Part shown: positions 43,643-45,390 of the stretch, in pieces
How positions within the stretch are numbered: position 1 is the first letter of the stretch
Layout of the letters: each line of letters begins with the position of its first letter
From: Escherichia phage ekra
Sequence record: MN850644.1
Strand: one strand, 5' to 3'
Length of the DNA stretch: 64,000 nucleotides
The notes under the pieces: model-generated
What the model was told of the DNA's origin: nothing
The model's database searches: none
The model's input: the letters and a program-made list of their open reading frames with translations, nothing else
Program-made: the position numbers and the translations under genes

Positions 43643-43704
43643 TGTGGGGCGAGGCTCGGTGAGGTGGGGTAAGGCATAGTGCGGTGCTGTTTGGTATGGG
43701 TAGT
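43643..43704 (+). repeat. Tandem GGTNN pentamer array A1 (about 12 units) ending in GGTATGGGTAG
   Basis: 5-bp periodicity of GG read directly. Confidence 0.7.
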
Positions 43705-43773
43705 TAGTCTCAGCTACATTAAAATGAGACTTACCTTTTTAAAAGGTCTTTAAACAGGGTCTTTTAATAAGGT

Positions 43774-43866
43774 TGTGTGATGTGATGTATGGTGCTGTGG
43801 AGTTTGGTTAGGTCCGGTCAGGTATGGTATGGTGATGTGAGGTATGGGTGGATGGTAGTAGCCACG
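43774..43866 (+). repeat. Tandem GGTNN-type pentamer array A2
   Basis: 5-bp periodicity read directly. Confidence 0.6.
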
Positions 43867-43955
43867 TTAAAAATCTACCAAGTTTCTAAAGAGTCTTCTG
43901 TTGAGGGTTCTTTACAAACAACTTAACAATCAACTAAAGTGTGGAGCTAAATGCT

Positions 43956-44543
43956 ATGAAACTGTTAAATATCAAAATCACTGGTACTCGTCCTTTCCTG
44001 AGCCATGCAGATACTCTGTCAGACCCATTAAACCCTCTGACAAAATATCACAAGTCTCTGTCCAGTAAACGTAAAAAGACTGACGAAGACTATGCGCTCT
44101 TAGCAGAAAGTCAACTGGTAACTTCTTGCTACTACGATGACCAACTAGGTTTTGTTATGAACGGTGAGATGATTGAGGCTTGTATCAAGTCTGGTGCAAA
44201 ACTCAATAAACTTGGTAAGGTAATTGACCGAGCCATTATGCTGACAGATGTAGTCTTCCCAATGACTATCAAGAACTGCCCAGCAAACCCACAAGAACTT
44301 GCTAAGAATCCAGACTTTATCTATGCTAAGTCTGTTAAGATTGGTACAGCACGAGTTATGAGCTACCGTCCAATCTTCCGTGACTGGTCTGTAGAGTTCG
44401 GTTTGATGTTCGATGAAGAGCAAATTACCAAAGAGGAACTCTTGATGGTTCTGGAAAATGCTGGTAACCTTTGTGGTGTAGGTGATTGGCGTCCACGCTT
44501 TGGTCGTTTTTCTGTAGAAGTTATTTCAGAAGGTAACGTTTAA
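43956..44543 (+). CDS. hypothetical protein (about 195 aa), first gene of the repeat-flanked cassette
   Basis: ORF; ATG with GGAG 9 nt upstream. Confidence 0.55.
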
Positions 44544-44545
44544 TT

Positions 44546-44986
44546 ATGAATACGAAAGCATTAGCAGCAAAGTTTAGTTACGGTGACACTGTATCACATT
44601 CTGAGATGGACACCTTCTTAGGTATTGTGAAGCCAACTTATCAAGGTGACATTGTTAAGTACGAAGATGAAATGAAGGCTTATGCGCTTACACGTCTAAA
44701 CCGACTTGAGAAGTTTATTGAGAAGCTTCTTAAAGAAGAGAAGATTTATCTGGTTGCTTCAATGGGTGTTGGTTATCGTGTGGTTGAACCTAAGCATCAA
44801 GCAACTATTGCAAAACGAAAAATGTCTGGTAAAATTGGTCGTGCTTTAAAGCAAGCCACTCAAGCGATTGAGAATGTGAACACTATGGCACTTAGCCATC
44901 AAGAACGCTCACGACTAATTGAACAGCAAAACCATTTAGCTGCTATGAAAGCTAACATTAACAAGCAACGTAGAAAACCTTTCTAA
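44546..44986 (+). CDS. hypothetical protein (146 aa), second gene of the repeat-flanked cassette
   Basis: ORF followed by terminator. Confidence 0.55.
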   Translation: MNTKALAAKFSYGDTVSHSEMDTFLGIVKPTYQGDIVKYEDEMKAYALTRLNRLEKFIEKLLKEEKIYLVASMGVGYRVVEPKHQATIAKRKMSGKIGRALKQATQAIENVNTMALSHQERSRLIEQQNHLAAMKANINKQRRKPF

Positions 44987-44996
44987 GTTAACTAGG

Positions 44997-45020
44997 TAGC
45001 CTCTTCGGAGGCTCCTTTTT
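44997..45020 (+). terminator. Intrinsic terminator (gcctc ttcg gaggc + TCCTTTTT)
   Basis: Read directly after the stop of 44546-44986. Confidence 0.6.
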
Positions 45021-45049
45021 AAAAGGTCTTTAAGAGGGTCTTTTAACAA

Positions 45050-45120
45050 GGTGCTGCGAGGTGGGGTCGGGTCAGGTACGGTCTTGTAAGGTCAGGTTAG
45101 GTAAAGTGAGGTATGGGTAG
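45050..45120 (+). repeat. Tandem GGTNN pentamer array B1
   Basis: ggtcg ggtca ggtac ggtct ... ggtat gggtag. Confidence 0.65.
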
Positions 45121-45186
45121 TTAATCGGAGCTACATAAAAATTCGATTACATCACTTAAGAGTCTTTTAAAAGGGTTTTTAAGTGA

Positions 45187-45251
45187 AGTATGGTATGGCA
45201 TGGCGCGGTGAGGTCGGGTGCGGTCAGGTCAGGTGAGGTTCGGTATGGGTA
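45187..45251 (+). repeat. Tandem GGTNN pentamer array B2 (12 near-perfect units)
   Basis: ggtat ggtat ggcat ggcgc ggtga ggtcg ggtgc ggtca ggtca ggtga ggttc ggtat gggtag. Confidence 0.75.
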
Positions 45252-45319
45252 GTTAGTCTCAGCTACATTAAAATGAGACTTACCTTTTTAAAAGGTCTTT
45301 AAGAGGGTCTTTTAATAAG

Positions 45320-45390
45320 GTATTGTATGGTGTAGTTTGGTTAGGTATGGTTGGGTGTGGTAAGGTAGGGTATGGAAGGATGGCAGTAGC
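45320..45390 (+). repeat. Tandem GGTNN-type pentamer array B3
   Basis: 5-bp periodicity read directly. Confidence 0.6.

Follow-up and report, generated by a model that had tools for sequence, protein, structure and literature searches.

A Cas7-like gene among five pseudoknot-tailed repeat modules in Escherichia phage ekra: a very probable SUSP1-clade VIPR locus with guides aimed at an E. coli satellite

We analysed a stretch of 64,000 nucleotides (nt) from Escherichia phage ekra (MN850644.1), which is referred to as the window, with a focus on two adjacent genes that are flanked by a pair of direct repeats. The window derives from a Felixounavirus (Felix O1-like), and the locus is situated after the ligase gene inside the replication gene module. 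The two genes, which correspond to vipr and vap of the recently described VIPR systems, are accompanied by five related modules, two upstream and three downstream of the genes, and the repeat pair represents the most similar two of these five. We consider it very probable that the region 43547-45410 is a type II ("SUSP1 clade") VIPR locus, which works as published for phage SUSP1 and whose guides are aimed at a satellite in E. coli. The locus as such is already known, as it falls inside the published SUSP1 clade (two 2026 preprints, PDB 36pp).

VIPR systems consist of Vipr, described as an ancestral RAMP protein of ~20 kDa, the accessory gene vap and vrRNAs of ~100 nt, which contain 9-16 YNNGG repeats (Y, pyrimidine; N, any nucleotide) and a constant tail, folded in the SUSP1 clade into a pseudoknot (bioRxiv 10.64898/2026.04.26.720920).

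Repeat modules with guide tracts and pseudoknot tails

The initial annotation had described near-identical direct repeats of roughly 90 bp around the two genes. The repeat is real, has the same orientation in both copies and flanks both open reading frames, but its starts had been placed 5-10 nt too early. In the true register, the copies span ~84 nt (43693-43776 and 45242-45324, offset 1549). Their first 62 nt are identical, a match for which a chance origin is impossible. A single mismatch and an indel of 1 nt come next (AAACAGGG vs AAGAGGG), after which identity resumes; the variation formerly written as (a/g)(c/g) is replaced in the alignment by this substitution plus indel. Each copy comprises the last repeat unit, the constant pseudoknot tail and the linker of a vrRNA, namely vrRNA1 and vrRNA4. 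Part of the repeat is labelled "DR_4" in the GenBank record of wV8 and "repeat_region" in other records, neither of which assigns a function. In the record of KhF3 (KT184315, L029 2680-2690), part of the vrRNA region carries the label "direct repeat sequence4 possible binding site of StbAB", which is probably a mis-annotation.

At the start of each module, 11-15 pentamers follow one another strictly in phase, each conforming to (G/a/t)-G-(T/c)-N-N, and every tract in the window terminates in GGTAT, directly followed by the tail. With up to one mismatch allowed, GGTNNGGTNNGGTNNGGT has 30 matches in the window, all of them on the plus strand and at the locus, compared to 0.02 expected. An entropy profile was calculated from 70 unique tracts of 24 Felixounavirus loci, anchored on the tails and without a content filter. 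The NN columns reached 1.8-2.0 bits, and the G, G and Y columns 0.90, 0.26 and 0.55 bits, respectively. All five tracts of the window show the conserved GGY and hypervariable NN in numbers of repeats that lie within the range published for vrRNAs. Compared to the locus of Escherichia phage Andreotti, guides 1, 2 and 5 are common, and the guides at positions 3 and 4 are unrelated (L002 4553-4750 vs 45050-45246). Since the two loci are 97% identical and yet differ wholly in two guides, we conclude that guides are exchanged far faster than the flanking DNA diverges. None of the four guide codes of SUSP1 equals any of the five in the window.

The tail element of ~35-38 nt places the 5' arm of one stem inside the loop of the other and therefore forms an H-type pseudoknot, with an A-rich linker and stems of 4 bp (S1) and 6-8 bp (S2); a linker hairpin with a conserved loop is located 3' of it. 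Covariation was assessed in 20 unique tails, with the structural register set by hand: 96% of the cells were paired, and 9 of the 12 pairs had changed on both sides. The covariation score amounted to 0.72, compared to 0.22 in shuffles, none of which (0/500) reached the observed value, and to at most 0.095 when the partners were slid. No Rfam family matched at gathering thresholds in the window, and none at E ≤ 0.1 in six distant loci. The coordinates of all features are compiled in Table 1.

Table 1 Features of the vipr-vap locus and its borders in the window. NN, variable dinucleotides of consecutive pentamers, with that of the terminal unit in parentheses; S1 and S2, pseudoknot stems.
Feature	Position	Strand	Details
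Sigma-70-like promoter	43547-43574	+	TTGACA, 16 nt, TATACT; 11/12 consensus positions
Leader hairpin	43604-43645	+	ACATCACTTAA...TTAAGTGATGT, conserved loop GTCTTTnAAnAGGGT; type shared with the inter-vrRNA linker hairpins
vrRNA1 guide tract	43643-43697	+	11 in-phase pentamers; NN: GG GA TC GA GG AA AT GC GC TT (AT)
vrRNA1 tail	43698-43776	+	H-type pseudoknot 43698-43735 and linker hairpin; with unit 43693-43697, first repeat copy of the initial annotation
vrRNA2 guide tract	43771-43845	+	15 pentamers; NN: TG GA GA AT GC GG TT TA CC CA AT AT GA GA (AT)
vrRNA2 tail pseudoknot	43846-43880	+	S1 GTGG/CCAC, S2 TGGTAG/CTACCA
vipr	43956-44543	+	Cas7-like RAMP protein, 195 aa
vap	44546-44986	+	vap1-type accessory gene, 146 aa
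Terminator-like hairpin	44998-45013	+	GC-rich, then T run; 3' of vap
vrRNA3 guide tract	45050-45114	+	13 pentamers; NN: GC GA GG CG CA AC CT AA CA TA AA GA (AT)
vrRNA3 tail	45115-45186	+	Pseudoknot 45115-45150 (S2 TAATCGGA/TTCGATTA) and linker hairpin
vrRNA4 guide tract	45187-45246	+	12 pentamers; NN: AT AT AT GC GA CG GC CA CA GA TC (AT)
vrRNA4 tail	45247-45324	+	Pseudoknot 45247-45284 and linker hairpin; with unit 45242-45246, second repeat copy of the initial annotation
vrRNA5 guide tract	45319-45373	+	11 pentamers; NN: AT AT GT TT TA AT TG GT AA AG (AT)
vrRNA5 tail pseudoknot	45374-45408	+	S1 AAGG/CCTT, S2 TGGCAG/CTGCCA
Sigma-70-like promoter	45427-45455	+	Promoter of the downstream early operon, outside the VIPR locus

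Both sigma-70-like promoters are located outside the repeats, which speaks against the earlier proposal that the repeats are duplicated regulatory elements from which both the cassette and the downstream operon are driven. Judged from the sequence, the first promoter probably drives the upstream vrRNAs together with vipr-vap.

The extreme skew of G over C 3' of a strong promoter, within the replication module and beside ligase and polymerase genes, could also be attributed to an element acting at the DNA level, in which the G-rich non-template tracts form R-loops or two-tier G-quadruplexes and serve as a replication origin or priming zone. However, neither structure depends on GG being followed by a pyrimidine, on a fixed period of 5 nt or on covariation within a pseudoknot. 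Elsewhere, the tracts travel with vipr and not with replication genes (in Streptomyces, the cassette is found between portal and terminase genes), and relatives lacking the cassette replicate normally. We give this explanation hardly any credence. A genome terminus or pac site at the locus was ruled out as well, the 608-bp terminal repeat of UAB_Phi87 being located elsewhere.

Vipr, Vap and their relation to known systems

Both open reading frames had initially been described as lacking recognisable domains. This holds for Pfam, in which neither protein had a match (including none to ToxN), and PHROGs returned only families of "unknown function" for the two; at the level of the fold, however, the product of the first gene is a Cas7-like RAMP protein. 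The profile of the gene-1 family matches PDB 36pp, "SUSP1 Vipr protein", with an E value of 3e-79, and the protein has the RRM core, G-loop and thumb of a minimal RAMP. Vipr of the window is identical at 191 of 195 positions, and Vap at 145 of 146, to the proteins of a locus (L015) whose layout equals the one reported for SUSP1, i.e. one tract upstream and three downstream; position 175 of Vipr is a valine in both. According to cryo-electron microscopy (cryo-EM), one Vipr protomer binds per repeat, GGY is held by H17, D177, R138, W178, R179, E71, M72 and C173, and DNA binding leads to a gapped hybrid and an R-loop triplex (10.64898/2026.04.26.720927). All eight contact residues are present in Vipr of the window. 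The start of vap lies 3 nt past the vipr stop codon, forming a two-gene operon. Vap gave weak matches to winged-helix-like folds and is predicted to be a DNA-binding accessory protein. Among more distant partner genes, gene 2 matched the L025 type (BLASTP, 2e-9), and its comparison with the profile of the L023/L024/L027 type was not significant (hhalign, E 0.044).

The closest described system is the type II VIPR of SUSP1 (PDB 36pp), with which the locus shares 98% identity in Vipr and 99% in Vap, the position after the ligase gene in an Ounavirinae genome, the vrRNA design of GGY/NN units with a pseudoknot tail, and targets read with a 1-nt skip on one common E. coli satellite family. Unlike SUSP1 with its 1 + 3 modules, the phage analysed here is a Felixounavirus with two modules upstream and three downstream. 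For SUSP1, ~100-nt vrRNAs co-purifying with Vipr, the filament, the triplex and silencing have been demonstrated (10.64898/2026.04.26.720920 and.720927), and the present locus does not extend the published mechanism.

Class 1 CRISPR-Cas systems (Cas7: Csm3, Cmr4) resemble the locus in the RAMP fold with RRM core, glycine-rich loop and thumb hairpin, in a protein that polymerises along the guide RNA and in a constant handle that caps the variable guide. The locus differs from them in that it is phage-encoded and has no CRISPR array, adaptation genes or other cas genes, in its period of 5 instead of 6 nt with a GGY motif in every unit, and in a non-contiguous guide (2 of every 5 nt) that reads DNA with a 1-nt skip. 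Neither a CRISPR repeat (Rfam) nor a CRISPR-like array was found in the window, and we do not assign the locus to class 1, given the missing array, the absence of any other cas gene and the 5-nt period with its per-unit motif. The TRAP/trp leader system of Bacillus is comparable insofar as a protein oligomer reads ~11 trinucleotide repeats, separated by 2-3 variable bases, in RNA. TRAP, however, is a closed 11-mer ring of ~8-kDa subunits acting in cis by attenuation, and VIPR is an open helical RAMP filament acting in trans on DNA; the RAMP fold, the GGY motif in place of (G/U)AG and an NN code for trans targets exclude a TRAP-type attenuator. Likewise, the locus is no type III toxin-antitoxin system (ToxIN-like), considering the lack of a Pfam match to ToxN and the RAMP/Cas7 fold.

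Guide matches in an E. coli satellite

In the published systems, the NN dinucleotides encode the targets in double-stranded DNA, and the one base that is skipped per unit usually corresponds to the wobble position of a codon; targeting is independent of a protospacer-adjacent motif (PAM), can be directed to either strand and results in transcriptional repression, and 18 of the 20 vrRNA targets of the SUSP1 clade lie on a satellite phage in E. coli genomes (10.64898/2026.04.26.720920). We searched for such satellites with the phage baseplate gene adjoining the tape-measure gene (window 58206-59006) as bait. Of 5426 complete E. coli genomes, 474 contain a gene for a "phage baseplate protein" with up to 91-95% DNA identity to that of the phage. 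This gene is located on islands of ~11-13 kb, which also carry a tape-measure gene that is likewise 91-95% identical to the phage's own at the DNA level, a large serine recombinase gene and HNH and hypothetical genes. The islands are inserted at yciI/tonB, yecD or ymdF/wrbA and are often interrupted by insertion sequence elements. In the four copies examined (L102 5710-17390; L103 ~2000-15380; L104 ~4170-18000; L105 ~1700-15350), neither vipr nor tracts were found.

The five guides were scanned against these four islands under skip rules of 0 to 3 nt. Only the 1-nt skip yielded outliers, and skips of 0, 2 and 3 nt remained at background. Guide 4 matched a satellite recombinase gene perfectly (22/22), a site carried by the satellite of the L104 type, and matches with mismatches in such genes were obtained for guide 1 (19/20), guide 2 (25/28, also 24/28, in recombinase genes) and guide 3 (22/24); guide 5 matched at 18/20 a site that precedes the first operon gene of a satellite by 32-61 nt. 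In 300 permutations of the unit order per guide, the observed score was never attained for any of the five. The skipped base coincides with the third codon position in all four coding matches, and no self-target with a 1-nt skip was detected in the window, where the best match was ≤ 75%. As controls, guide 4 of SUSP1 matched at 21/22 in the satellite recombinase gene, and the two divergent guides of Andreotti matched at 21/22 and 21/26 in other satellite genes.

The same tracts might be regarded as cis-regulatory RNA sites, comparable to the TRAP attenuator, such that the Cas7-like protein coats the leaders of its own mRNAs and has no DNA target in trans; coating of (GGYNN)n would then act on the cassette and the genes downstream, either by ending transcription or by preventing translation. 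The tracts indeed occupy 5' and 3' untranslated positions of the operon, and those of distant loci all end in a T run directly before the ribosome-binding site of the next gene. However, this explanation gives no reason for the hypervariable NN or for codon-phased matches in a satellite, and DNA targeting in trans that is reprogrammable through NN alone is described in both preprints (10.64898/2026.04.26.720920 and.720927). We regard both the cis-acting role and its proposed effect on transcription or translation as very unlikely.

The interpretation as a VIPR locus builds on the anatomy, the fold, the identity of Vipr and Vap with those of SUSP1, the GGY/NN pattern, the covariation of the tails and the target matches, all of which were established in this analysis. 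Transcription from the promoter at 43547, together with read-through, would generate the vrRNAs, and Vipr would polymerise on the GGY/NN tract with one protomer per pentamer, sequestering GGY and presenting NN. The resulting filament would read double-stranded DNA in steps of two paired bases and one skipped base, form an R-loop triplex and block transcription. With the assistance of Vap, it would bind and repress the satellite recombinase gene and the region of the lead operon, and the silencing of both would hamper excision or spread of the satellite. We infer that this limits a satellite which would otherwise parasitise the phage.

A comparable conflict exists between phage ICP1 and PLE in Vibrio cholerae, where the RNA-guided system of a lytic phage targets a chromosomal satellite that parasitises it. 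ICP1 carries a complete type I-F CRISPR-Cas system, which degrades DNA and acquires spacers; VIPR, in contrast, relies on one small protein, is not known to possess adaptation machinery and, as reported, represses its target instead of cutting it.

Several points weigh against this interpretation. The hand-set register of the tails favours the structure that was tested. Some of the non-canonical units at the front of the tracts (TGT.., AGT..) may or may not belong to the guides, and the ends of the vrRNAs are predicted. Four of the five matches are imperfect (86-95%), because only four satellite variants were scanned, a scope that contrasts with the published pan-genome search by nhmmer. Vipr loading, vrRNA expression and repression in this phage would follow from the 98-99% protein identity. 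Finally, Felix O1 carries a well-formed tract without vipr, which the VIPR model leaves unexplained.

Related loci, cassette loss and orphan vrRNAs

Gene 1 has more than 500 unannotated relatives, and the two-gene unit also occurs in actinobacterial prophages. In six viral contigs with gene 1 at 37-39% identity, in-phase tracts of the GGT or GGC type flank the homologues of both genes. Within a set of 67 diverse vipr loci, tracts of at least seven units are found on the sense strand in 65 and on the antisense strand in one, usually as arrays of 1-8 tracts with a spacing of ~110-120 nt. As the tracts accompany vipr across distant loci, the functional unit is the cassette with its tract arrays and not the repeat pair. 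Considering the distant GGC-type tracts, the RAMP fold and the target matches, we dropped Chi sites, clusters of primase sites, a Shine-Dalgarno-like ribosome sponge, a CsrA/Hfq sponge, a G-quadruplex/R-loop origin and a type III toxin-antitoxin array as candidates.

Three peculiarities of distant loci were observed. In a prophage of Rhodococcus globerulus (L030 7137-7653), five (GGCNN)n tracts alternate with a conserved minihelix that bears the canonical tRNA T-arm GGCGGTTCGATTCCGCCGCC; ARAGORN calls two of these minihelices as odd "tRNA-???", and the T-arm suggests processing by RNase P or RNase Z. The consulted part of the preprint mentions hammerhead-interspersed arrays and contains no remark on tRNA-like separators (10.64898/2026.04.26.720920). 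In Streptomyces prophages (L032, L033 6001-7106), the cassette of vipr and its partner is inverted between portal and terminase genes in a moron-like manner, with only a short tract 3' of the partner gene. Gene callers extend the partner reading frame upstream through the tract, which results in spurious N-termini rich in Gly, Ala and Arg, e.g. MARPGTARLGQAW (P0124, P0140, P0162, P0163, P0167).

Among close relatives, the cassette polymorphism that the initial annotation had predicted is present: the cassette is missing from Felix O1 and from about half of the related records, and the span from the ligase gene to the downstream operon amounts there to ~2.27 kb compared to 4.1 kb. These phages retain exactly one hybrid module between the ligase gene and the downstream promoter, in which a single tract of 12 units stands between the leader hairpin of the first module and the tail of the last. 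In Felix O1 (L028 1385-1480, AF320576, ~57.7 kb), this tail is intact; tblastn with vipr and vap against its 86-kb genome gave only noise at E ≤ 10. The notion that the repeats are recombination substrates was likewise confirmed, by the cassette loss and by module copy numbers of 2-5 among near-identical phages. Both the turnover of guides and the loss of the cassette could plausibly have come about through recombination between tails.

These polymorphisms, together with the promoter-like sites flanking the region, would also be expected if the repeats were mere recombination substrates or duplicated regulatory modules without any RNA function, and the genes an unrelated moron cassette. This, however, leaves unexplained why the units keep strictly to a phase of 5 nt, with GGY conserved and NN close to random, and why the tails show compensatory changes, and it accounts neither for sense-only tracts beside vipr homologues of 37-48% identity in nearly all of the 67 loci nor for satellite matches that are specific to the 1-nt-skip rule. 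We consider it extremely unlikely and conclude that recombination between the repeats is a by-product and that their function lies elsewhere.

For the orphan guide of Felix O1, no target was found in the four E. coli satellites, and the RNA is either a deletion scar or a user of Vipr supplied in trans. A further solitary vrRNA is located in E. coli O111:H- 11128 (NC_013364, L101 19912-20075) and consists of a promoter-like site, 12 GGY/NN units and a tail with a GTGG/CCAC pseudoknot. It lies in ~1.5 kb of unannotated DNA, beside a short recombinase gene that adjoins yciI and with no vipr nearby; the locus contains no target of the guides. A 77-nt match to this vrRNA was obtained in 152 of 5426 complete E. 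coli genomes, whose solitary, promoter-driven vrRNA has the same tail and likewise no vipr in its vicinity. In intergenic regions of the window (447-515, 756-806 and 918-1003), short tandem motifs of the CTTAACA and TCTTAAAAG type are present, and similar ones fill the unannotated DNA adjoining the orphan in E. coli O111 (L101 18950-19800); they may represent a regulatory vocabulary common to phage and satellite.

It is conceivable, if rather doubtful, that orphan vrRNAs act in trans by loading onto, redirecting or sponging Vipr from a co-infecting VIPR-positive phage. If so, they would be more than scars of deletions and would form a layer of guide-RNA parasitism or of decoys against VIPR. 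Satellite-borne vrRNAs are mentioned in the consulted part of the preprint, which makes no reference there to orphan vrRNAs in helper phages lacking vipr (10.64898/2026.04.26.720920).

VIPR is a newly reported, PAM-free mode of RNA-guided DNA recognition by a protein of ~20 kDa and has been proposed as an ancestor of CRISPR RAMPs. Its signature can be called by scanning raw sequence for GGYNN pentamers repeated in phase, a tail that forms a pseudoknot and a gene for a small RAMP protein. For the phage analysed here, the decoded guides predict silencing of the integrase and the lead operon of a satellite family that is present in 474/5426 complete E. coli genomes. Felix O1-like phages serve in biocontrol and typing, and the prediction is relevant to their yield and host range.

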